Positions 2,531 through 46,483 of a stretch of 47,914 nt of DNA are shown in pieces. The position numbers and the translations under genes were made by a program. Each line of letters starts with the position of its first letter. The first letter of the stretch is position 1. The notes beneath the pieces are model-generated. The model searched no databases. It was not told where the DNA came from and saw only the letters and a program-made list of their open reading frames with translations. Origin of the DNA: Candidatus Doudnabacteria bacterium. GTDB taxonomy: Bacteria > Patescibacteriota > Doudnabacteria > UBA920 > O2-02-FULL-48-8. Location of the stretch: the NCBI GenBank assembly GCA_023246005.1, contig JAHFJG010000009.1, forward strand, positions 1 to 47,914, read 5' to 3'.

Positions 2531-2944
2531 TTATAACAGATCTAATCCTTGACCCGTGCCAGCTTCATGGTAACCAGCGTTCACGCCGAAAGAATTTTGT
2601 AATTCTTCGGACTCTGTTCTTAACTTTTTAATAATTTCATTGGCCTCTTCGCGGCTTTGGGCTGCTTCTAGTTTTGGAATGGCACCTTCTAATGCTAGTC
2701 GCATCCCTATGTGAGCCCTTTGCTCTTTTGAACCTACTTTATATAACGGTTCTGTATTAATTTTATAAGATTCGACATCGGTACGGATGCCCTGAACGAG
2801 CCTATCGCGATCTTCTTTGAATTTCCGATCGGATTCCGCCTGAGATCCTTCTGGTTTTTTTTCAGTTGATTCGGGCTTAATGCCCATCATTGCTTGGTCT
2901 CTTTGGGACATTTCGCCCATTTCTTCAGGGCCTGGTCTAGACAT
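2531..2944 (-). CDS. Hypothetical protein
   Basis: 137-aa ORF with hairpins on both sides. Confidence 0.65.
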   Translation of the reverse strand: MSRPGPEEMGEMSQRDQAMMGIKPESTEKKPEGSQAESDRKFKEDRDRLVQGIRTDVESYKINTEPLYKVGSKEQRAHIGMRLALEGAIPKLEAAQSREEANEIIKKLRTESEELQNSFGVNAGYHEAGTGQGLDLL

Positions 2945-3026
2945 AAATTTTTGATTAATTGTTTAAATTCATAATATTATTATCTCATCAAATCGTCAAA
3001 TATTAAACCGCCTTTTGGCGGCTAAT

Positions 3027-3368: not shown

Positions 3369-4290
3369 AACTAATTTGCACTTGATTAAGAATATTTTTC
3401 AAATCAAGAGGTAGAGTGGAGAACAATTCCAGCCACGTCCCATCCATCAACTGAAACTTTAATTTATAAGCGTGTAGGAATTGCCTGGTCAAGATTGTTG
3501 AATCTTGCTTTAGTCCGTAAACTTGATCGCCAACTATCGGATAGCCGATATGGGCCAAGTGGGCTCGAATCTGATGTGTGCGGCCTGTATGCAATTTTAC
3601 ACGAAGCAGGGAGAATTGTCCAGAAGCATCTAAAACCCAATACTCTGTCAGCGCCGGCTTAACTTTTCCGCCTGAGGCGCCCGCCTGCCCGGCCGGCAGG
3701 GATCCGTCTCTGACGGACATCTTTTGCTTAAGCGGTTGTTTCTCAAGAGGCAGATCAATGACATCATGTTTCTTGCTGGGTGTCCCATGGACTAAGGCTA
3801 AATATTCTTTTTCTACTTTCCGATCCATGAAAAGTTGTTTGAAATAATCATAGCTACCGGGATTCTTGGCAACCAAAATTAATCCTGAAGTATCTTCGTC
3901 CAGCCTGTGGACTATTCCTGGCCGATGTGGCTGCCCGACTTTTTCAATTCCAGGATAGAGACTTATCAAAGCATTAGCCAAAGTATCTTCTGTATTGCCA
4001 GCTCCTGGATGCACAACTAATCCTGCCGGTTTGTCAATCACAACCACCTCCTCGTTTTCAAAAACTATTTTTAATTTGAGATCACTTGGTTTCAGATTAT
4101 CAGATTCAAACTCTGGTAATTCAATCGTATCGCCAACGATAACCATATAATCCGGTTCTAAAATTTCCATACCGTTAACTGAAACCAAACCATGCTTAAT
4201 AGCAGTTTGGACTTTGCCTCTGGAAACCTGAGTTTCGTGGGCCAAAAATTTGTCCAACCGGTCAGTTTGATCTGATGTAAATTTAAGCAT
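3349..4290 (-). CDS. rluD: RluA/RluD-family pseudouridine synthase
   Basis: S4 domain, [29 protein letters not shown]; carries an in-frame palindromic insertion. Confidence 0.92.
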
Positions 4291-5050
4291 TTTTGATTAA
4301 ATCTGGCCTTCGTTTTTTTGTTCGCTTCAAAGCTTCGGCTTTGCGCCATTGGTCAATCTTGGCATGGTTTCCAGAAAGCAAAACTTTCGGCACTTTTTGT
4401 TTGTCAAACACTTCGGGTCGCGTGTACTGAGGATATTCCAAAAGCCCATCACTGAAACTTTCATGCACCAAAGATTCTTCTTTTCCCACGACCCCTGGAA
4501 CCAAACGAGCAACTGTATCCAAAACAACTAAAGCGGGAATCTCGCCGCCGGTCAAAACAAAGTCGCCAATGGAAATTTCCATATCAACCAAGCTCCGAAT
4601 CCGTTCATCAAATCCTTCGTATCTGCCGCAAATCAAAACTATCGTTTTATATTTTGACAATTTAACGGCTAATTTCTGATCAAATTTCTGGCCCTGTGGC
4701 GTAAGCAAAATTATCTTTAATCTTTTATCTTTAACCTTTAACCTTAGATCGCGCAAGGCGCGATCAATTATGTCGACGCGCAAAACCATGCCGGCTCCCC
4801 CGCCATAAGGTCTGGCATCCACACTTTTATGCACGCCCTCTCCCCAGTCGCGCAGATTTTTTATTTCAAATGAAACCAACTTTTTCGCCACTGCACGCTT
4901 AAGCAAACTTACATTCAGGTAAGATTCAAAAGCTTCCGGGAATAAAGTTAAAATAATAAATTTTACCCCCACACCAATAGTGCGACGGCTTGGTACATTT
5001 ATTCGAACTTTATTAATTTTTTTACTAATCCCAACGATGGAAAATTTCAT
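4283..5050 (-). CDS. trmD: tRNA (guanine-N1)-methyltransferase
   Basis: PYGGGAGMV, CGRYEGFDER, SIGDFVLTGGE, LEYPQYTRP; start uncertain because an inverted-repeat element occupies the 5' end. Confidence 0.95.
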   Translation of the reverse strand: MKFSIVGISKKINKVRINVPSRRTIGVGVKFIILTLFPEAFESYLNVSLLKRAVAKKLVSFEIKNLRDWGEGVHKSVDARPYGGGAGMVLRVDIIDRALRDLRLKVKDKRLKIILLTPQGQKFDQKLAVKLSKYKTIVLICGRYEGFDERIRSLVDMEISIGDFVLTGGEIPALVVLDTVARLVPGVVGKEESLVHESFSDGLLEYPQYTRPEVFDKQKVPKVLLSGNHAKIDQWRKAEALKRTKKRRPDLIKNA

Positions 5051-5062
5051 TTGGTGTGGGGG
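4966..5062. mobile_element. MITE-like element, family A (CCCCCACACCAA...TTGGTGTGGGGG)
   Basis: Perfect 12-bp terminal inverted repeats around an AT-rich core; flanks TTTA/TGAA. Confidence 0.75.
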
Positions 5063-8755: not shown

Positions 8756-9439
8756 TCAAAAATCAGAAACTTTCAGCCCATTTTCAGCAGCAGAAATTTC
8801 TGCTTCCTGCTTGGAGGGCCCGGTTCCCTTGGCAATTTGTTTGTCATTGATAAACACGGCAACTTCGAAATTTTTATTATGATCCGGGCCCCATTCAGCT
8901 AAAACTTTATAGTGCGGTGTGACTCCCAATTTTTCTTGAGCTAGTTCTTGAAACTTGCTTTTTGGGTCCAAAGTTTTGCCGTTTGTCACAATGCTTTCTA
9001 AATGATTGATCACAAATTCGTAAATAAAAGTCTTGACAACATCAAATCCTCGATCCAAATAAATTGCGCCAATCAGCGCCTCGAACGCATTAGCCAAAAT
9101 GACTTGGCGGGCTCGACCCATATCTTTCGACTCGCCGCGGGAAAGCAAAATGTATTTATCCAACTCCATGCTACTGGCAATTTCTGACAGCATTTTATAA
9201 TTGACCAAAGCCGAGCGTAAATTAGTTAACTCTCCCTCTGGATTTGGAAAATTGCGGTACAAATATTCGGTCGTAATCAATTCCAAAACCGCATCCCCCA
9301 GAAACTCCAGTCGTTCATTATGCGGCATGGGCCAACGACGATTTTCATTTAAATAAGATCGATGCGTTAAGGCGCTTTGCAAAAAATTACGATCTGTAAA
9401 TTGTACTTTAATTTTAATCTCAAGCTTGTCTAAATCCAT
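8756..9439 (-). CDS. rnc: Ribonuclease III
   Basis: ALTHRSY, NERLEFLGDAVL, C-terminal dsRBD. Confidence 0.97.
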   Translation of the reverse strand: MDLDKLEIKIKVQFTDRNFLQSALTHRSYLNENRRWPMPHNERLEFLGDAVLELITTEYLYRNFPNPEGELTNLRSALVNYKMLSEIASSMELDKYILLSRGESKDMGRARQVILANAFEALIGAIYLDRGFDVVKTFIYEFVINHLESIVTNGKTLDPKSKFQELAQEKLGVTPHYKVLAEWGPDHNKNFEVAVFINDKQIAKGTGPSKQEAEISAAENGLKVSDF

Positions 9440-9514
9440 ATGTTAGTAAAAAGGCAAAAATCAAAAGTAAAAACCTTTATTTTTTACGTTTAACTTTTAA
9501 CTTTGGTTAATTAT

Positions 9515-10535: not shown

Positions 10536-12419
10536 CTACACAGGAACTGATGCCAGTTGTCCGCTTGTGGTATTTTTAATTAATTTATCTTTTGGAATAA
10601 TGTCAGCAACCAAATTTTCGAATTCATCACGCTCCAAAGTTTCTTTTTCTACCAATTGGTTGGCGATTAAGGTCAGATGCTTGCGATATTTTTTGATAAC
10701 ATCCGAAGCTGTGCGGAAAGCCCGCTCTATGAACCCAGCGACTTCTTCGTCAATTTTTGCGGCAACTTTCTCGGAGTAATTTTTTTGTTCGGAAATCTCG
10801 CGGCCTAAAAAAATCATTTCATGACTCTCGCCAAAAGTCATAGGCCCCAAACTTTCTGACATGCCATAAGCCGTGACTAATTTGCGCGCCAAATTCGTCG
10901 CGACTTTTAAATCATTGGAAGCGCCTGTAGTTAATTCATTAAAAACTAACTTTTCCGTGGCATAACCACCCAAAGATACTGCCAAATCCGCCAAAAATTC
11001 TGATTTGGAATGTAAATTCTTATCTTCACTTGGCAACTTCATGGTAAAACCAGCGGCGCGGCCGCGGGAAACAATCGAAACTTTGTGCACCGGGTCAGCG
11101 TGCGGCAAGACAGTGGCAATTAGCGCATGCCCGGCTTCGTGCCAAGCTGCAATTTCTTTTTCTTTTTTCGAAAGTAAGTGGCTTTTCCGTTCAGGGCCTA
11201 ACATAACTTTTTCAATAGCAGAAATCAATTCAGTTTGACCCACTTCTTTCATATTTTTGCGCGCAGCCAAAATCGCGCCTTCATTCATAAGATTGGACAA
11301 ATCAGCTCCAGAAAATCCTGGCGTTCTTTCAGCAATGCTTCGCAAATTGACGCTCTTGGCCAGAGGCTTGCCTTTGGCATGGACTTGTAAAATTGCTTCC
11401 CGATCATTGATATCAGGCAGATCCAAAATCACCTGCCGGTCAAACCTGCCTGGTCGAAGCAGGGCCGGATCGAGTACATCTGGACGGTTAGTCGCGGCAA
11501 TGACAATGACATTGGTTTCATTTTCAAATCCATCCATCTCAACCAAAATTTGATTCAAGGTTTGCTCTCGTTCGTCATGCGATCCACCTAAACCCGCGCC
11601 TCGTTGTCGGCCAACGGCATCAATTTCATCTATAAACACGATGCACGGTGAGTTGCGCTTAGCTTTCTTAAATAAATCCCTGACGCGCGAAGCGCCCACA
11701 CCCACAAACATTTCTACGAACTCTGAACCCGAAATATGGAAAAAAGGAACATTAGCCTCCCCTGCCACTGCCCGGGCGACTAAAGTTTTGCCAACTCCTG
11801 GAGGACCAAGCAACAAAACACCCTTAGGAATTCTGGCGCCTAAAGAAAAGAATTTTTGCGGGAAGCGTAAAAATTCCACGATTTCTTTGAGTTCTTCTTT
11901 GGCTTCTTTCGCGCCGGCCACATCAACAAATGTCGCGCGCTTACGGCGATCTGATTGTTCCAAAACTTTTGCTCCTGATTGGCCAAATGACATAGCGCGA
12001 TTGTTTGAGCCTTGAACTTGGCGCATCAAAAACCAGATGAATGCTGCAATCAAAAGAAAAGGAATTAAAAACGGCAGTACAGTTGAGATAAGAAAAGATG
12101 AAGACGATGAAGCGTCGGAAACCTCAATTTTCAAATCTTTCTGTTTGCCAGAATCTACTCCAGCATCCTTCAGAGTTGTAAAAATAGACACCCCGTTCTC
12201 TTTTTCAGAAATTTGCTGGCTGCCATCTTTCAAATACACAGTCAGTTTGTCAATATTAACCACAATCCGATCAATCTTGCCGGCATTAGCTTCTCCTGCG
12301 ATTTGAGAAATCGAAACTGTATTTGCTGGACTGGTGTTATTGTTAAATAAAGTAAACGCGCCAGCAATCACGAGAAAGATGGCGAGAATGATTAATAAGT
12401 TCCGGATAAAATTCGACAT
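10536..12419 (-). CDS. ftsH: ATP-dependent zinc metalloprotease FtsH
   Basis: Two TM segments, [42 protein letters not shown]. Confidence 0.98.
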
Positions 12420-12422
12420 TTA

Positions 12423-12725
12423 CCCCCACACCAAACGAATTTAAAAGTCGATTGACTTCTTAATTCGTATTAATAGTTGTCTCCTGGCCCTTGCCCCAAG
12501 CTTGAGATTATGTTCTCTATGACGCGCATCTTGTTCTGAAGCGTAAGCTTCATAATAAACAAGTGTTAACGGTCTTCTATTTCTAGAAGATGGCACAAGT
12601 CCTGAATTATGTTTTTTATATCGTTCTATTAAATTCTTTGTAGATCCAATATATAACAGCTGATCCTTCAAACTTTTTAAGATATAAACGAAAAACATAA
12701 TTCAAAACTCGTTATGGTGTGAGGG
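12423..12725. mobile_element. Family A element carrying a GIY-YIG gene
   Basis: CCCCCACACCA at the left end and TGGTGTGAGGG at the right end bracket the ORF within about 20 bp; flanks TTTA/TGTA. Confidence 0.7.
12441..12698 (-). CDS. Small GIY-YIG nuclease family protein
   Basis: VYILKS...LYIGST...R...H...YYEAY...ARHRE..LK. Confidence 0.92.
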   Translation of the reverse strand: MFFVYILKSLKDQLLYIGSTKNLIERYKKHNSGLVPSSRNRRPLTLVYYEAYASEQDARHREHNLKLGARARRQLLIRIKKSIDF

Positions 12726-12767
12726 TGTAGCTTACAAATTTTACCTAATTTTGGAATAAAAGTCAAT

Positions 12768-12860: not shown

Positions 12861-13100
12861 TTATTTTAGCTTTTTTAAGAATTCTTTACCAGTTCCCGAT
12901 TTCAAATATTTCTCTCTTTGTCTGGCAGAAACTCGATCTGAAAACTCTTCTGTATATATTAATTTAAAAGGCCTATATGCACGCGTTGTTCTTTCTTTAC
13001 CTAGATTATGCTGGACAATCCTCTTTTCAACATTAAATGCTAAACCTACGTAAATATAATTTCTTATCAAACTACTGATCGCATAGACTGAACATTTCAT
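12861..13100 (-). CDS. Small GIY-YIG nuclease family protein
   Basis: VYAISS...YIYVG...R...HN.G...AR.REKYLKSG.GKEF. Confidence 0.92.
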   Translation of the reverse strand: MKCSVYAISSLIRNYIYVGLAFNVEKRIVQHNLGKERTTRAYRPFKLIYTEEFSDRVSARQREKYLKSGTGKEFLKKLK

Positions 13101-13212: not shown

Positions 13213-13590
13213 TTATTTTTTGCCTTTTCTAAAATTGTCCAAATAGACCATAAAGCCACCGATCTGATTGCCTAATTCTTCAAGTTTCTTATTTGCGTCC
13301 TCAAATTCGTCTTCAGTAATATAACCAACAACTAATGCTATACGTAACTGATTACGAACTTCCCCTACAGAACCCTTCGACATCCTAAGAAACCGTATAA
13401 ATTCGTTATTATTATTCTTCTCGAAACCTTCAACTATACAAGAGCTAACTCCAATCATTGCACCTCTAATCTGATCCCTGAGTTTAAAATCCTTACTGAA
13501 TTTTAGATTATTGGATAAATCGTAAACTAACTTTGTCAGCTTCAACGATTCTTGCCAAATTGGCAGTTCTTCGAATCTTTTATATTTCAT
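13213..13590 (-). CDS. Four-helix-bundle protein (23S rRNA IVP-like family)
   Basis: FEELPIWQ...LRDQIRGA...IVEGFE...EFIRFLRMSKGSVGEVRNQL. Confidence 0.92.
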   Translation of the reverse strand: MKYKRFEELPIWQESLKLTKLVYDLSNNLKFSKDFKLRDQIRGAMIGVSSCIVEGFEKNNNNEFIRFLRMSKGSVGEVRNQLRIALVVGYITEDEFEDANKKLEELGNQIGGFMVYLDNFRKGKK

Positions 13591-17860: not shown

Positions 17861-17861
17861 A

Positions 17862-18009
17862 CCCAGTATATCAACTTCGATAATGGTTTTTGAATTTGCT
17901 TTTGCCAAAAGTAGTAGTTATTAATTTTTATTTAACCCTAATCTATAGTTTTAAAATTTAACTAATCAAAAACCATTAAGGGCAAAAGCATCGAAGTTGT
18001 ATTACTGGG
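17862..18009. mobile_element. MITE-like element, family B (CCCAGTATATCAACTTC...GAAGTTGTATTACTGGG)
   Basis: Same two asymmetric ends as the element at 25784-26092; AT-rich core; flanks TTTA/TTTG. Confidence 0.85.
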
Positions 18010-18014
18010 TTTGC

Positions 18015-24261: not shown

Positions 24262-25782
24262 CTACTCTACTTTCGGTCTGTATTGCAACGCTTCGGCTAA
24301 ATGATTAATGGCTATGTCTGGAATTCCTTCAAGATCAGCAATGGTCCTGGCTAACTTTAAAATCCGATGATAAGATCGAGCGGATAAATACATTTTTACC
24401 ACAGCAGTTTTCATAAAATTTTGCTCATCGCTGCCAAGCTGGCAAAATTCTTTAATCTCTTTAATGCCCATTTCAGAATTAGTTTTTATTCCTTTTAAAT
24501 TCGTAAATCTTTCGGTTTGAATGTCCCTGGCTTTCTGGACTCTAACCTGAATATTTTCTGAAGATTCTCCGGGTGATTCTGAAGATAATTTTTCATATTC
24601 CAAACGGCCGACCTCGACATGCAAATCAATGCGATCGAGCAATGGCCCTGAAATCTTTTTTTGATACTTCATGATTTGACCAGGAGTACAAATACAGCTT
24701 TTGGTTGGATCTGAATAATAGCCGCAGGGACAAGGGTTCTGAGCTGCAACCAAAGTAAACTGGGCTGGAAATGTGGCTGTGGAATGCACACGCGCAACTG
24801 TCACAATACCATCTTCCAAGGGCTGTCTTAGATTCTCAAGTACCGATCGGGAGAATTCCGGAAATTCATCCAAGAACAAAACACCTCGATGGGCCAGAGA
24901 AATTTCACCTGGTTTCGGGTTGCTTCCTCCCCCGACTAAAGCAATTCCAGAGGTTGTGTGGTGCGGACTCCGAAAAGGTCTGGCTGTAACTAAAGTTTTA
25001 TTTATGTTCAATAACCCTGCTACACTATAAACTTTCGTAATTTCTAAAACCTCATCTGCAGTCAGTTTAGGCAAAATTGAAGGCAAGGCTTTGGCGAGCA
25101 ATGTTTTGCCAGTGCCAGGAGGACCAGACAAAAGTAAATTATGTCCTCCAGAAGCTGCGATTTCAAGCGCGCGTTTGGCTGCCTCTTGGCCTTTGATCAG
25201 CTGCATATCAAAGACCGTTTCAGGCGTTTGTAAAATTCTATTCCAATCAGCAGATTCAACCATTTCAACTTTAATCAAGCCTTGTAAATAACCTATAACT
25301 TCATACAAACTTTTAACAGGGATAATTTCTATGCCAGTAACCAAGCTCGCTTCCTTGGTGTTGCCTTTGGGTATAAACACTTGTTTAAATCCCCGCTCCT
25401 TAGCCATGAGCAAAATTGACAAAACGCCAGAAACTGTCCTTAGATTTCCATCTAAGGCTAATTCTCCAACAAACAATTTATCTTTTGGTTCAAAAAATAT
25501 CTGACCGGAATTATGTAAAATAGATAACGCAATTGGCAAATCATAGTATGTCCCATTTTTAGGCAAGTCAGCAGGCGCTAGATTTACAGCAATGTGGGTG
25601 GGTGGAAAGATAGCACTGGAATTTCTGATTGCTGACTTGACTCGTTCTTTCGCTTCTTGGACAGCTGCGTCTGGCAAACCGACAATAATAGTTTTGGGCA
25701 AACCTCCTGAAATATCAACTTCGACCTCGATGAGTGCGGCATTCAAACCTATTAGAGACGCGGAATAAATTTTTGCGGGCAT
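24262..25782 (-). CDS. comM: YifB/ComM Mg-chelatase-like AAA+ ATPase
   Basis: VGLPDAAVQEAKERV, GPPGTGKT, PFRSPHH, PGEISLAHRGVLFLDE, NPCPCG; start set at MPAKIYS. Confidence 0.95.
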   Translation of the reverse strand: MPAKIYSASLIGLNAALIEVEVDISGGLPKTIIVGLPDAAVQEAKERVKSAIRNSSAIFPPTHIAVNLAPADLPKNGTYYDLPIALSILHNSGQIFFEPKDKLFVGELALDGNLRTVSGVLSILLMAKERGFKQVFIPKGNTKEASLVTGIEIIPVKSLYEVIGYLQGLIKVEMVESADWNRILQTPETVFDMQLIKGQEAAKRALEIAASGGHNLLLSGPPGTGKTLLAKALPSILPKLTADEVLEITKVYSVAGLLNINKTLVTARPFRSPHHTTSGIALVGGGSNPKPGEISLAHRGVLFLDEFPEFSRSVLENLRQPLEDGIVTVARVHSTATFPAQFTLVAAQNPCPCGYYSDPTKSCICTPGQIMKYQKKISGPLLDRIDLHVEVGRLEYEKLSSESPGESSENIQVRVQKARDIQTERFTNLKGIKTNSEMGIKEIKEFCQLGSDEQNFMKTAVVKMYLSARSYHRILKLARTIADLEGIPDIAINHLAEALQYRPKVE

Positions 25783-25783
25783 A

Positions 25784-26092
25784 CCCAGTATATCAACTTC
25801 CCGTGCCAAACGCCGATTGGCGTTGGTACTCTAATAATCTTAGTCCGGTAAATCTTCTGCCTTGGGTTGTTTTAAGATACTTCTCACGGCGTTTGGCATC
25901 TTTCTCTGATAAACAAGCTTCATAGTAAATAAGCTTAAAAGGCAGTCTAAACTTGGAGGAAAAGTTATAGCCATGCTCGTGTTCTTTTATTCGTCTAGTT
26001 AAATTGTTCGTATGCCCGATGTAGTTCTTACCGTCTGTTAAACTCTCAAGAATGTAGACATAAAAGAACACGTGGGAAGTTGTATTACTGGG
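25784..26092. mobile_element. Family B element carrying a GIY-YIG gene, with 4-bp target duplication
   Basis: CCCAGTATATCAACTTCCC...GGGAAGTTGTATTACTGGG flanked on both sides by CATA. Confidence 0.85.
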
Positions 26093-26095
26093 CAT
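25793..26095 (-). CDS. Small GIY-YIG nuclease family protein
   Basis: FYVYILES...YIGHT...RR..EH...YYEA...AKRREKYLK; stop codon lies in the inverted repeat; alternative GTG start at 26071. Confidence 0.92.
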   Translation of the reverse strand: MPSNTTSHVFFYVYILESLTDGKNYIGHTNNLTRRIKEHEHGYNFSSKFRLPFKLIYYEACLSEKDAKRREKYLKTTQGRRFTGLRLLEYQRQSAFGTGS

Positions 26096-26582: not shown

Positions 26583-27227
26583 TTACTCTAATCTTCTAAT
26601 TACTCCGATTACTTTACCCTGAATCGACCATTCATTTTCAGGGTAGATATTTGGATAATCCTTATTCTCGGCTTTCAAATAAAATTTATTGTCTTTTCCG
26701 CCAGAGGCGGATCCGCCTCCGGCGGATTTCACTAAACGCTTAACCGTAGCTTCATCTTCAAGCAATGCTACCACTATATCGTTGATATCTGCAATCTTTT
26801 GTTGCTTCACAATCACCAGATCCCCATTCAAGATTCCTGCATCCTTCATACTCATGCCTTGGACTTTTAGGAGAAAAACATCTTTGCGGCCTCGAATCAA
26901 ACTGGTTGGTAGATTCAGCCAATCTTCAATCTGTTCTTCAGCTAGCATGGGAAGTCCTGCTGTGATTCGGCCAAGTAATGGAACACTAATCAATCCTCGT
27001 CCTACAGGTTCACCTTCTGGATTTAAGACTTCAATGCCTCGAGCCTTACTTGATCTGCGGATGTAACCTTTAGTTTCCAAAACCCGGAGTAATTTTGCCA
27101 CAGCGTTTTTAGATTTAACTCTAAGGCCTTTGGCGATTTCTGAAATTGAAGGTGGAAGCCCTTTTTTTTGGATTTCATCAGTTAATAGTTCTAATAATTG
27201 TTTTTGCTTGGACGTTAGTTCATTCAT
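26583..27227 (-). CDS. lexA: SOS repressor LexA
   Basis: LTSKQ..., PPSISEI, AG cleavage site (ITAGLP), GMSM, ATVKR; start set at MNEL. Confidence 0.95.
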   Translation of the reverse strand: MNELTSKQKQLLELLTDEIQKKGLPPSISEIAKGLRVKSKNAVAKLLRVLETKGYIRRSSKARGIEVLNPEGEPVGRGLISVPLLGRITAGLPMLAEEQIEDWLNLPTSLIRGRKDVFLLKVQGMSMKDAGILNGDLVIVKQQKIADINDIVVALLEDEATVKRLVKSAGGGSASGGKDNKFYLKAENKDYPNIYPENEWSIQGKVIGVIRRLE

Positions 27228-27364: not shown

Positions 27365-27421
27365 AAAAAGCCTTTCGACTTTATCCCCACACCAAAATTT
27401 TGGTGTGGGGATTTATCCACA
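27365..27421. repeat. Direct repeat copy 1: terminator plus minimal family A palindrome
   Basis: aaaaagcctttcgacTTTA-tccccacaccaaaattttggtgtgggga-TTTA. Confidence 0.85.
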
Positions 27422-28625: not shown

Positions 28626-28681
28626 AAAAAGCCTTTCGGCTTTATCTCCACACCAAATTTTGGTGTGGGGATTTATCCCCA
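28626..28681. repeat. Direct repeat copy 2: terminator plus minimal family A palindrome
   Basis: aaaaagcctttcggcTTTA-tctccacaccaaattttggtgtgggga-TTTA. Confidence 0.85.
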
Positions 28682-31256: not shown

Positions 31257-31820
31257 AAAAAAAGCCTCATTCTTTCTGGGCTCTGTCTCGCGTAGCGAGA
31301 TCCCGCTCCGCGGGATAATCAACAACTTTTAAGTTAGTGGTTACAGAGCGGATCATACCGCCCGCAAATATTATATATGTGGCGAGATCCGCCCTGTGGG
31401 CGGCCTCTACTGAAGCTCATCTCCGCTCGCACGCTTGCGCGTAAAGCAGAGGTCAACATTCGTATGTAGAAACCGAAAAGGAACAACTTATATATCTAAC
31501 CAATCTATAAGAGAAGTTCTTCACTGTTCTTGTGGTGCGAACACCATAACAATTTTTGTTTTATGTTTGTTTTATTTTTATACAAACGATTTTTATTTTT
31601 GTTTTACAAGCAGCTGGGTTAGAACAGCTATGACGAATAGTGGAGAACGTCAAAGTCTCAAATTTTAAGGCCTTGGCTTTCTCCGCTTTTCGAAAATATT
31701 CAATTTTCAAGGTTCATCCCGTTTAGAAATTACATTTCTGTTTTCTAAATCAATTAATCTATCCAAATTGGCTTATTTTGAAGATAAACTGAGTTACTAA
31801 AATTTCTAACGGGATTCAAT
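31257..31820 (-). ncRNA. Candidate large structured non-coding RNA
   Basis: Consensus promoter upstream, no sense-strand ORF in the track, many GC hairpins, terminator-like end. Confidence 0.45.
31717..31814. mobile_element. MITE-like element, family C
   Basis: TCCCGTTTAGAAATT...AATTTCTAACGGGA; TTCA duplicated on both sides. Confidence 0.85.
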
Positions 31821-31826
31821 ATGACT

Positions 31827-31855
31827 ATTCTAGCAGATTTTTTAAGCCTTGTCAA
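31827..31855 (-). promoter_or_regulatory. Sigma70-type promoter
   Basis: TTGACA-17 bp-TAGAAT with TG at the extended -10 position. Confidence 0.75.
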
Positions 31856-31968
31856 TAATTTGTACTGCAAACTTAAAAAATTGCGAATTTATTAAGCATT
31901 TTTGAATTTTAAAACCGGCTTCAGATGATTTATACACATCTAAAACCGACAAAAACTAAAAAATTTAT

Positions 31969-38134: not shown

Positions 38135-38180
38135 TCCCTCACCTTTTGTTTTGAGGATTCTTAAGGAAAAAGGTGAGGGA
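38135..38180. repeat. Short inverted-repeat element related to family A
   Basis: TCCCTCACCTTTT...AAAAGGTGAGGGA; flanks TCAA/TAAA. Confidence 0.55.
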
Positions 38181-46240: not shown

Positions 46241-46294
46241 AAATTCTATTTAATCGTGTAGTTAGATATTAGTTTATCAGGTTTATGTTGTCAA

Positions 46295-46434
46295 CCCAGT
46301 AATACAACTTCGATGCTTTTGCCTTAAATGGCTACTAATTACCAAAAAAAATAAAAGATTAGCTTAAATCTATTAGTAATATTTTATTTTTTTGCAAAAG
46401 CAATTAAGCCATTTATCGAAGTTGATATACTGGG
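46295..46434. mobile_element. MITE-like element, family B, with 4-bp target duplication
   Basis: CCCAGTAATACAACTTCGAT...ATCGAAGTTGATATACTGGG flanked by TCAA on both sides; inverted relative to the copy at 17862. Confidence 0.88.
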
Positions 46435-46483
46435 TCAAATGACCACGCAGTGGTCAGCCCGGACTCGAGTCCGGGATCCACTT

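Follow-up and report, generated by a model that had tools for sequence, protein, structure and literature searches.

In the DNA immediately upstream of ftsH in a Candidatus Doudnabacteria genome, a very small gene for a GIY-YIG nuclease is enclosed by inverted ends that recur elsewhere in the same DNA, which raises the question of whether gene and ends together form a mobile element and, if so, what moves it. The stretch analysed, here called the window, comprises 47,914 nt and is contig C27 of a 672,938-bp, 43-contig assembly (GCA_023246005.1) with a completeness of ~80%; the genome that holds it is designated G000, and related genomes with which it was compared are designated G010, G021 and so on. 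We use family A for all units sharing the inverted ends of the window element, and B and C for other end families. Comparison with relatives revealed that the family-A units are insertions. We consider it probable that they are hairpin-ended selfish elements which encode a nuclease that recognises their own ends, and that they have moved through the action of this nuclease.

The gene-bearing unit is 303 bp long (window 12423-12725) and the nuclease gene is its sole gene. An initial annotation of this DNA had described a GIY-YIG gene bracketed by inverted ends at 12419..12729, and both the coordinates and the sequences were borne out (Table 1). The arms at 12423-12433 (CCCCCACACCA) and 12715-12725 (TGGTGTGAGGG) differ at one position, while the ends of this full member extend over 13-17 nt, (A)CCCCCACACCA[A/T]AACGAG. 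Only one Pfam model, PF01541, matched the 85-aa protein over the curated cut-off, covering residues 1-68. The closest solved structure was that of the UPF0213 protein BH0048 (1zg2, E 3e-6), with SLX1 scoring 0.016, and these UPF0213 and SLX1 relatives are structure-specific nucleases. Residues Y5, Y16, R26, H30 and E50, which we take to be the catalytic residues known from I-TevI and UvrC, are invariant across 17 homologues. A second, DNA-binding domain was not found with Pfam or NCBIfam, and the length of the protein leaves no room for one; the NCBIfam model for group I intron endonucleases aligned with residues 3-33 only, at 19 bits against a cut-off of 56. Between G000 and G010 the proportions of nonsynonymous and synonymous differences (pN and pS) in the nuclease gene were 0.18 and 0.83, the latter saturated, and those of the adjoining FtsH N-terminus were similar (pN 0.13, pS 0.82). 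Despite this saturation the ends kept 12/13 and 13/13 positions, the fully identical terminal bases being those of the right end (12423..12439). Judging from these sequence comparisons, both the nuclease protein and the ends are under purifying selection.

A motif scan of the genome, which the initial annotation had proposed as a check, revealed a repeat family with a wide range of sizes. CCCYCACACC with at most one mismatch occurred 11 times in the window, compared with 1.76 +/- 1.20 times in shuffled sequences, none of 100 of which reached 11, and the exact 13-mer CCCCCACACCAAA occurred 16 times in the G000 genome (reversed control, 0). Pairing of the genome-wide matches yielded 15 family-A inverted pairs, measuring 27, 27, 28, 28, 49, 97, 98, 98, 99, 102, 134, 134, 140, 175 and 303 bp; beyond these there are a 1,186-bp unit with related ends and a 46-bp variant. 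The GIY-YIG gene is confined to the 303-bp unit, the other 14 pairs (27-175 bp) being without it. All the further copies reported earlier for the window were recovered, namely the one at trmD, the two minimal palindromes and the variant at 38135-38180. The exact TTTA duplications described for the two palindromes were also present, but these copies are not counted as two clean independent events because they share longer flanks, of ~19 nt on the left (AAAAAGCCTTTCGRCTTTA) and 7 nt on the right (TTTATCC); they may represent one duplicated unit, or two insertions beside similar terminator hairpins. As single-stranded DNA, the minimal units are predicted to form hairpins with 13-bp stems, at -14.6 kcal/mol for 27384-27411 (z -7.1) and -11.2 kcal/mol for the other (z about -7). 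Three miniatures of 134-140 bp carry the polarity and the asymmetric subterminal sequence of the gene-bearing unit, with CCATAACGAG towards one end and CTCGTTTGG towards the opposite end, and have a common inner hairpin whose stem differs by paired changes. Miniatures in the ribosomal operon occupy the same sites in G000 and G010, and the G010 miniatures are closer to one another than to their positional counterparts in G000. When the exact 13-mer was counted in 60 related genomes, with the reversed sequence as control, it was found in 20 of them, belonging to five families, and frequently as close inverted pairs, as against 2 matches in total for the control.

Sites that are filled in one genome and empty in its relatives identify these units as insertions. 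At the tRNA-Leu(TAG)/ftsH junction the element is present in two of 21 same-family genomes (G000 and G010) and the other 19 junctions are empty. The spacer of the empty junctions holds a promoter-like TTGACA-N17-TAAAAT, and the distance from the -10 box to the ftsH ATG is 9-10 nt in four genomes and as much as ~35 nt in others; in the two filled junctions the element stands directly before the ATG (GGGGG-TAA/TTA-ATG). The start of dnaE (M-x-x-F-T-H-L-H) is likewise empty in 19 of 24 relatives and filled in five, by units of two end families. In G000 a 98-bp unit plus 4 bp adds 34 codons after codon 4 and keeps the frame. At this TTYA site the other four genomes (G007, G014, G015 and G022) carry units whose ends belong to another family (CCCCGTACCAC-like). 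Exact duplications (TTCA/TTCA and TTTA/TTTA) flank two of these, and the units hold internal ATGs that would give a new N-terminus. The dnaE site is empty in G010, G008 and G024, which are close to G000 by the FtsH tree. In dinB, 10 extra residues found in G000 alone, when aligned with three relatives, are encoded by a 28-bp palindrome, although the net gain is 10 codons (30 bp) and not 28 + 4 bp. The initial annotation had named conservation of the palindromes at orthologous positions across distant relatives, together with a lack of enrichment around GIY-YIG genes, as what would refute its reading, and the ftsH and dnaE sites gave the opposite picture.

Insertions were also found within tRNA genes, where they carry tRNA genes of their own. 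On contig C13 (2265-2520) the 175-bp unit interrupts a tRNA-Thr(CGT) at the anticodon-loop TAAA and has as cargo the 5' half of a second, split tRNA-Thr and an intact third tRNA-Thr. The nesting is reversed in G010 (locus L073; the G000 locus is L165), where the interruption, again at TAAA, is in the allele that G000 has intact, and the inserted unit brings the allele that G000 has split. A reading of the tRNA interruptions as introns was rejected. When the insert was taken out, ARAGORN still did not accept the outer tRNA-Thr, also with the threshold lowered, owing to a degenerate T arm. A tRNA-Arg(TCG), reconstructed by joining C2 7375-8599 to C36 1-165 (the contigs overlap by at least 100 bp), has its T arm interrupted by the 1,186-bp unit, whose ends are CCCCCACACC and whose cargo is a second tRNA-Arg(TCG) plus an ORF (open reading frame) of ~280 aa; here the outer gene was recognised as a tRNA once the insert had been removed. 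An intron-bearing tRNA-Thr called on C30 was set aside since it looks spurious, its predicted 2,166-nt intron falling in a G+C-rich stretch.

Target-site duplication was assessed in 35 copies, 15 in G000 and 20 fetched from seven other genomes, against a null in which the right flanks were shuffled. Exact 4-bp duplications were present in 17 of the 35 copies (8.3 +/- 2.1 expected, P 0.00025), five of them in G000 and 12 in the other genomes. Among gene-bearing copies the duplicated sequences were TCAA, TTGA, TGAA and TAAA, and at L004 and L006, taken as orthologous loci, a miniature flanked by TAGA/TAGA lies where an A-type GIY-YIG gene has its stop codon. The T-N-N-A target claimed in the initial annotation survives as a bias but not as a fixed sequence: TTTA and TAAA are the commonest flanks, yet CTTG, TTGA and TAGA were exactly duplicated as well. 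The claimed length of 4 bp needs qualifying too, as some subfamilies, found in other phyla, appear to duplicate 5 bp (GGTTA, CGCCA). Flanks drift after insertion, since the copies at the same ftsH site have TACA/TAAA in G000 and TACA/TTAA in G010, and we attribute inexact flank pairs to this drift. The duplicated TAAA is frequently an upstream TAA stop plus A, or a TAAATG junction, as at the rpsH/rplF and rplX/rplE junctions and at a family-C unit before a ruvX-like gene. For the nearness of copies to start codons, the TAAA/TAAATG target together with the survival of harmless insertions is a better explanation than a role of the terminal G-run and TAA-ATG as a ribosome-binding site, which was rejected as GGGG was not enriched (2.2% vs 2.0% background). 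GGAG was found upstream of 8% of 492 ORFs (3% background), and Shine-Dalgarno motifs are rare genome-wide.

The initial annotation had further argued that distinct end sequences, each paired with a related nuclease, reflect a general architecture of C-run/G-run ends, a small GIY-YIG gene and a 4-bp duplication, and this generalisation held well beyond the window. In G000 there are nine GIY-YIG matches, of which four lie in G/C-ended brackets of 284-305 bp (family A once, B twice, C once); two further matches have weak A/T-rich brackets that are chance-like. An order-wide homologue search with a cut-off of E <= 1e-8 found GIY-YIG homologues in 105 of 146 genomes, mostly in several copies, and 23 of 30 loci fetched from it were bracketed. 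A species-representative collection, in which each species has a single genome, yielded at least 600 stretches that encode relatives; these come from many lineages of Patescibacteria, and some records are labelled Elusimicrobia, Omnitrophota, Margulisiibacteriota and others. A bracket was defined there as an inverted-repeat pair around the GIY-YIG gene with a score of at least 10, and 76 loci had enough flank to be assessed. The gene was inside a bracket, typically spanning 285-310 bp, at 46 of these 76 loci, compared with 28 of 225 mismatched pairs in which the upstream side of one locus was combined with the downstream side of another; matches in the control arise largely because many loci share CCCCCACAC ends. 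Moreover, the ends shift stepwise with identity to the window protein, from (A/T)CCCCACACCA at 70% or more, through ACCCCCTCACCAAAT and ACACCAATCAAG at 55-64%, to ACCCCGTTAGAGA and CCCCGTGAGATA near 50%. The more similar a genome's best GIY-YIG homologue, the more copies of the end 13-mer it tended to have (Spearman 0.52 among 60 genomes), a descriptive value as related genomes are not independent, and the four most copy-rich genomes (12, 7, 5 and 3 end 13-mers) were among the seven with the closest homologues. This co-variation argues that nuclease gene and ends belong together. Two gene-bearing copies of the sister family B are 100% identical over ~320 bp but have unrelated flanks, which we interpret as recent movement, and metagenome contigs hold many other cores between family-B ends. 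The family-C unit lies after one gene's TAA stop and ahead of the ruvX-like gene's ATG, and the stop codon of its GIY-YIG gene is formed by the duplicated TAAA. In four groundwater metagenome runs of one study the region is present in the form of contigs: among the joints listed, none spanned the family-A element, and those seen at family-B ends were cross-matches among repeat copies. No RNA data set was listed as containing the region. Assemblies break at these repeats.

The host gene beside the window element has a mosaic history. For FtsH residues 1-120, G000 and G010 were sisters (support 100/100), and the grouping of G010 with G021, its genus partner in the reference taxonomy, was rejected by the approximately unbiased test (p-AU 4e-5); from residue 201 to the end, G010 and G021 were sisters (99/94). 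With G016, G009 or G004 as outgroup, quartet sites in the first part favoured G000+G010 by 17-21 to 1, and those in the second part favoured G010+G021 by 7-9 to 3-7. The signal was weaker with outgroups G001 and G007, with first-part splits of 8 to 1 and 6 to 2, and with G001 the rest of FtsH left G010+G021 and G000+G021 tied at 7 each. A plain species-tree signal was rejected as the source of the ftsH similarity, as it was not matched by two other markers: in these, G010 was no closer to G000 than other relatives were, and the one readable in G021 put G010 nearer G021. The pattern suggests that the element, together with ~0.4 kb of the 5' end of ftsH, was exchanged between lineages by recombination.

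The closest published system is the Ssn family of nucleases (Chenal et al. 2025, PMC11893778). In the portion of that report available, Ssn proteins are single-domain GIY-YIG proteins of ~94 aa whose genes are flanked by hairpin repeats (SRM/NTS) that recur in the genome; biochemistry established that they bind the hairpin repeats and cut only single-stranded DNA beside them, and each protein clade has its own repeat sequence. Its authors note the insertion sequence-like layout and an analogy with REP/RAYT, and count Rickettsia among repeat-rich genomes. Family A is alike in its bare-domain GIY-YIG protein (85 aa), its hairpin-forming repeats scattered in the genome and its repeat for each protein clade. 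The arrangement differs in that Ssn genes, as described there, have whole hairpins (ATTCCC-N8-GGGAAT type) on both sides, whereas the gene here lies within one hairpin, between its two arms. Target duplications, empty sites and cargo miniatures are not reported in the portion available, and candidate-phyla names have 0 mentions in its text and in the 10 of 11 supplementary files searched (PMC11893778). With respect to this literature, the association of nuclease and hairpin was already known and the evidence for mobility is what is added here.

Three other kinds of repeat share some of these features. In REP/REPIN and RAYT systems, a Y1 HUH transposase gene is flanked by inverted short repeats, hairpins are dispersed between genes, and enzyme and repeat co-evolve. 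Family A resembles them in all three respects, but its enzyme is a GIY-YIG and not an HUH protein, and we know of no report that REPs make 4-bp duplications. A link to RAYT was rejected, as the Y1_Tnp-like (IS200-type) ORF of G000 (C33 6836-7863) lacks family-A ends; it is followed by a 32-nt palindrome, CTCTGGTGTGGTGCATTCACACCACACCAGAG, which is unique in the genome and has a core loosely like family-A ends. Bacterial miniature inverted-repeat transposable elements (MITEs), for example Correia elements, have terminal inverted repeats and a short target duplication, insert at gene junctions and become part of transcripts; they are deletion derivatives of insertion sequences with DDE transposases. 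The sizes of 27-175 bp, the terminal inverted repeats of 13-17 nt, the target duplication and the placing at gene junctions of family A are MITE-like. Unlike insertion sequences and MITEs, however, the only gene found between these ends is that for the GIY-YIG nuclease, which is not a recognised transposase (DDE, HUH, serine or tyrosine). Rickettsia palindromic elements, which Ogata and colleagues are said to have described in 2000 as inserted in frame into protein-coding and RNA genes, are similar in that palindromic repeats lie inside genes of both kinds; to our knowledge no element-encoded gene has been described for them.

Under the selfish-element account that we favour, the gene-less units of 27-175 bp, some with a tRNA gene, would be miniatures of the full 303-bp member. 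The nuclease would recognise a hairpin or cruciform made by its own ends and cut beside the hairpin; for its binding of the ends and the site of cutting we draw on the Ssn precedent and the co-variation of protein and ends. Repair, ligation and recombination by the host would then copy the unit by two routes. In the first, which is homing-like, genomes without the unit would receive it at the identical site, and flanking DNA would be co-converted. In the second, it would enter new A/T-rich, T-N-N-A-like sites with a 4-bp duplication, frequently a TAA(A) stop, a TAAATG junction, promoter hexamers, the anticodon loop of a tRNA gene or the first codons of a gene. Several points weigh against this account. 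A hydrolytic GIY-YIG nuclease alone cannot join DNA and could not by itself account for integration with a 4-bp duplication. There is one A-type gene per genome, at the same site in two genera and under purifying selection, and a single-copy gene so kept at its site fits domestication as well as it fits an active parasite; in two genomes the A-type gene is beside a miniature and not inside it. The flank pairs of 18 of the 35 copies are not exact duplications. For FtsH residues 201 to the end, the G000+G010 grouping was 12.6 log-likelihood units worse but not significantly rejected (p-AU 0.12), the groups were named after a tree had been seen, and the N-terminus is fast-evolving. Lastly, another mobilising enzyme is possible, given the ~80% completeness and the presence in G000 of one rve-type ORF and one Y1_Tnp-like ORF, neither with family-A ends; DDE_Tnp_1 (PF01609) and DDE_3 (PF13358) had no match in the ~80% complete genome, which is not proof of absence because the genome is incomplete.

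A first alternative is that homing alone is at work. The palindrome would be a repeated site that existed beforehand and was distributed by a different agent; the GIY-YIG gene would act as a free-standing homing endonuclease, cutting this site and entering its centre, and the gene-less copies would be empty or decayed targets. Minimal perfect palindromes do exist in G000 and in four other genomes, the mosaic ftsH flank is what co-conversion would leave, and the ends co-vary with the protein as a recognition site would. As with homing endonucleases, a GIY-YIG gene would spread with flanking DNA, and there is an association with tRNA genes, for which SegB of phage T4, a free-standing GIY-YIG homing endonuclease in a tRNA gene cluster according to the part of the report available (PMC2330249), provides a precedent. 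Nonetheless, we regard this alternative as unlikely. The gene-bearing units themselves have exact and varied 4-bp duplications at sites without a palindrome in relatives, the asymmetric subterminal sequence of the gene-bearing unit recurs in the 134-140-bp miniatures, and no other mobilising gene was found with family-A ends. Homing enzymes typically have extra DNA-binding modules, which the bare domain here lacks, and come without inverted ends, target duplication or miniatures.

A second alternative, to which we give somewhat less credence again, is a domesticated host system of the kind proposed for Ssn/NTS and REP/RAYT, in which the hairpins serve the cell, for instance in the recombination of incoming single-stranded DNA or in mRNA processing, the nuclease belongs to the host, and movement is rare or past. 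Purifying selection on protein and ends across saturated synonymous divergence would be expected of such a system, as would the single A-type gene per genome and the retention of the gene and of the ribosomal-operon miniatures at the same sites in G000 and G010. The two palindromes that flank the prs-like gene recall the NTS-gene-NTS layout, and Ssn modulates transformation in Neisseria, as stated in the available text (PMC11893778). However, presence at the ftsH, dnaE and dinB sites is patchy, host design is a poor explanation for units lodged in essential genes and tRNA genes, two loci carry identical family-B copies, and the G010 miniatures resemble one another more than their G000 counterparts. 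Neither the domestication nor the homing reading is mutually exclusive with the selfish-element account. A third alternative, that these are fixed regulatory hairpins (terminators or operators) lying near GIY-YIG genes by chance, is highly improbable: many copies do occupy intergenic junctions, two of them beside terminator-like hairpins, but no family-A palindrome scores as an intrinsic terminator (G+C-rich hairpin, 3-8-nt loop, T run), the positions are not orthologous in relatives, the empty sites contradict this reading, some copies fall within tRNA genes and ORFs, and the duplications exceed chance.

The 2025 work on Ssn showed that a GIY-YIG domain on its own is able to read a hairpin repeat, and left open the mobility of a unit made of gene plus repeat. 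The footprints of movement seen here are a repeat family with empty sites, varied 4-bp duplications, a miniature series, cargo tRNA genes and a mosaic host gene, and they are accompanied by gene-end co-variation and by selection on both. If the nuclease is the mobilising enzyme, these units would constitute a new class of transposable element, and this would account for the multi-copy small GIY-YIG genes in most genomes of the order as well as for short palindromes that occur where genes begin, within tRNA genes and among the first dnaE codons. A more far-reaching version, which we offer tentatively and hold to be doubtful, is that they are autonomous DNA transposons of ~300 bp with a bare 85-aa GIY-YIG nuclease as their only protein and a chemistry outside the DDE, HUH, serine and tyrosine classes, which would make them the smallest self-contained mobile element of cells. 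The hairpin or cruciform would be extruded, cut at its base by the element's own structure-specific nuclease and pasted by host ligation and repair with a 4-bp duplication; some lineages would have specialised for the anticodon loops of tRNA genes, bringing a replacement tRNA gene with them, or for the first codons of essential genes, where they keep the frame or supply a new start. Literature searches found no paper on elements made of a GIY-YIG gene within terminal inverted repeats. A superfamily survey of 2006, in the part available, treats stand-alone Slx1-like domains as vertically inherited (PMC1564403). Practical consequences are that gene callers will mis-place starts (trmD, dnaE) and tRNA finders will miss or miscount genes; as a sequence-specific DNA tool, each pair of nuclease and ends is a candidate.

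Table 1. Positions of the window element, its relatives and adjoining features (window coordinates unless a contig is named)
Feature	Position	Strand	Remarks
Family-A copy before trmD, no gene, 97 bp	4966..5062		Flanks TTTA/TGAA; trmD frame open throughout
Left flank of 303-bp unit, TTTA	12419..12422		Minus strand reads TAAA, overlapping the A of the ftsH start codon (GGGGG-TAA-ATG)
Inverted end CCCCCACACCAAACGAA	12423..12439		Right end with respect to the gene, 5 nt past the GIY-YIG stop codon
GIY-YIG nuclease gene, 85 aa, single domain	12441..12698	-	Pfam PF01541, E 4.6e-14
Inverted end CTCGTTATGGTGTGAGGG	12709..12725		Left end with respect to the gene, CCCTCACACCATAACGAG in gene orientation, 17 nt before the ATG
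Right flank of 303-bp unit, TGTA	12726..12729		
ftsH promoter-like TTGACT-17-TAAAAT	12738..12766	-	Element now parts the promoter from the ftsH ATG
Gene-less family-B copies	17861-18010, 46294-46435		
Family-B gene-bearing unit	25781-26095 and C30 ~31540-31860		Ends ACCCAGTATATCAACTTC...
Minimal family-A palindrome, 28 bp	27384..27411		Flanks TTTA/TTTA; downstream of prs-like gene
Minimal family-A palindrome, 27 bp	28645..28671		Flanks TTTA/TTTA; adjoins terminator-like hairpin 28628-28643
Family-A variant, 46 bp	38135..38180		Ends TCCCTCACC...GGTGAGGGA (TCCCTCACCTTTT...AAAAGGTGAGGGA); directly beside the -35 box (TTGACA) of a promoter matching at 12/12
Family-C unit (L166)	C24 ~2671-2952		Ends ACCCCCGCACTAATCC...GGATTGGTGCGGGGGT; exact TAAA duplication

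Several observations were made beside these loci. At trmD (window 4283-5062), an ATG-AAA-TTT just within the far end of the element mimics the usual TrmD start (MKF), and the conserved KFIILTLFPE follows directly after the near end without an ATG of its own. The relatives in which the ftsH ATG lies 9-10 nt past the TAAAAT -10 box are represented by loci L033, L037, L039 and L043, and ftsH may there be translated from a leaderless mRNA. Among the dinB genes of relatives (L204-L210, L213-L216), several give a match in two pieces in a frame that stays open, the pieces being separated by ~87-183 bp at residues ~136-143 or ~274. In G013 a 163-bp unit whose 17-nt inverted ends are different lies in this gap, and dinB may be a target that is hit repeatedly. 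On contig C3 (~8980-9460), a GIY-YIG gene lies between the 5' half of a tRNA-Gln(TTG), broken in the anticodon loop, and a whole tRNA-Gln, and the motif CCGCCACAA follows both the half and the whole gene. GIY-YIG genes also adjoin tRNA pieces at the relatives' loci L026, L028-L030 and L021. In the window itself, a second GIY-YIG gene, of 79 aa (12861-13100), abuts tRNA-Leu, and beside it at 13213-13590 is a gene whose 125-aa product belongs to the 23S rRNA intervening-sequence proteins (PF05635, E 1e-29); upstream of ftsH there is thus a cluster of small genes that are possibly selfish. Finally, a palindrome at window 26694-26726 (TCCGCCAGAGGCGGAT/ATCCGCCTCCGGCGGA) had a summed contig depth of 232 against ~12 in one metagenome run, with many loose ends, and appears to be another element that is highly repeated in the community.

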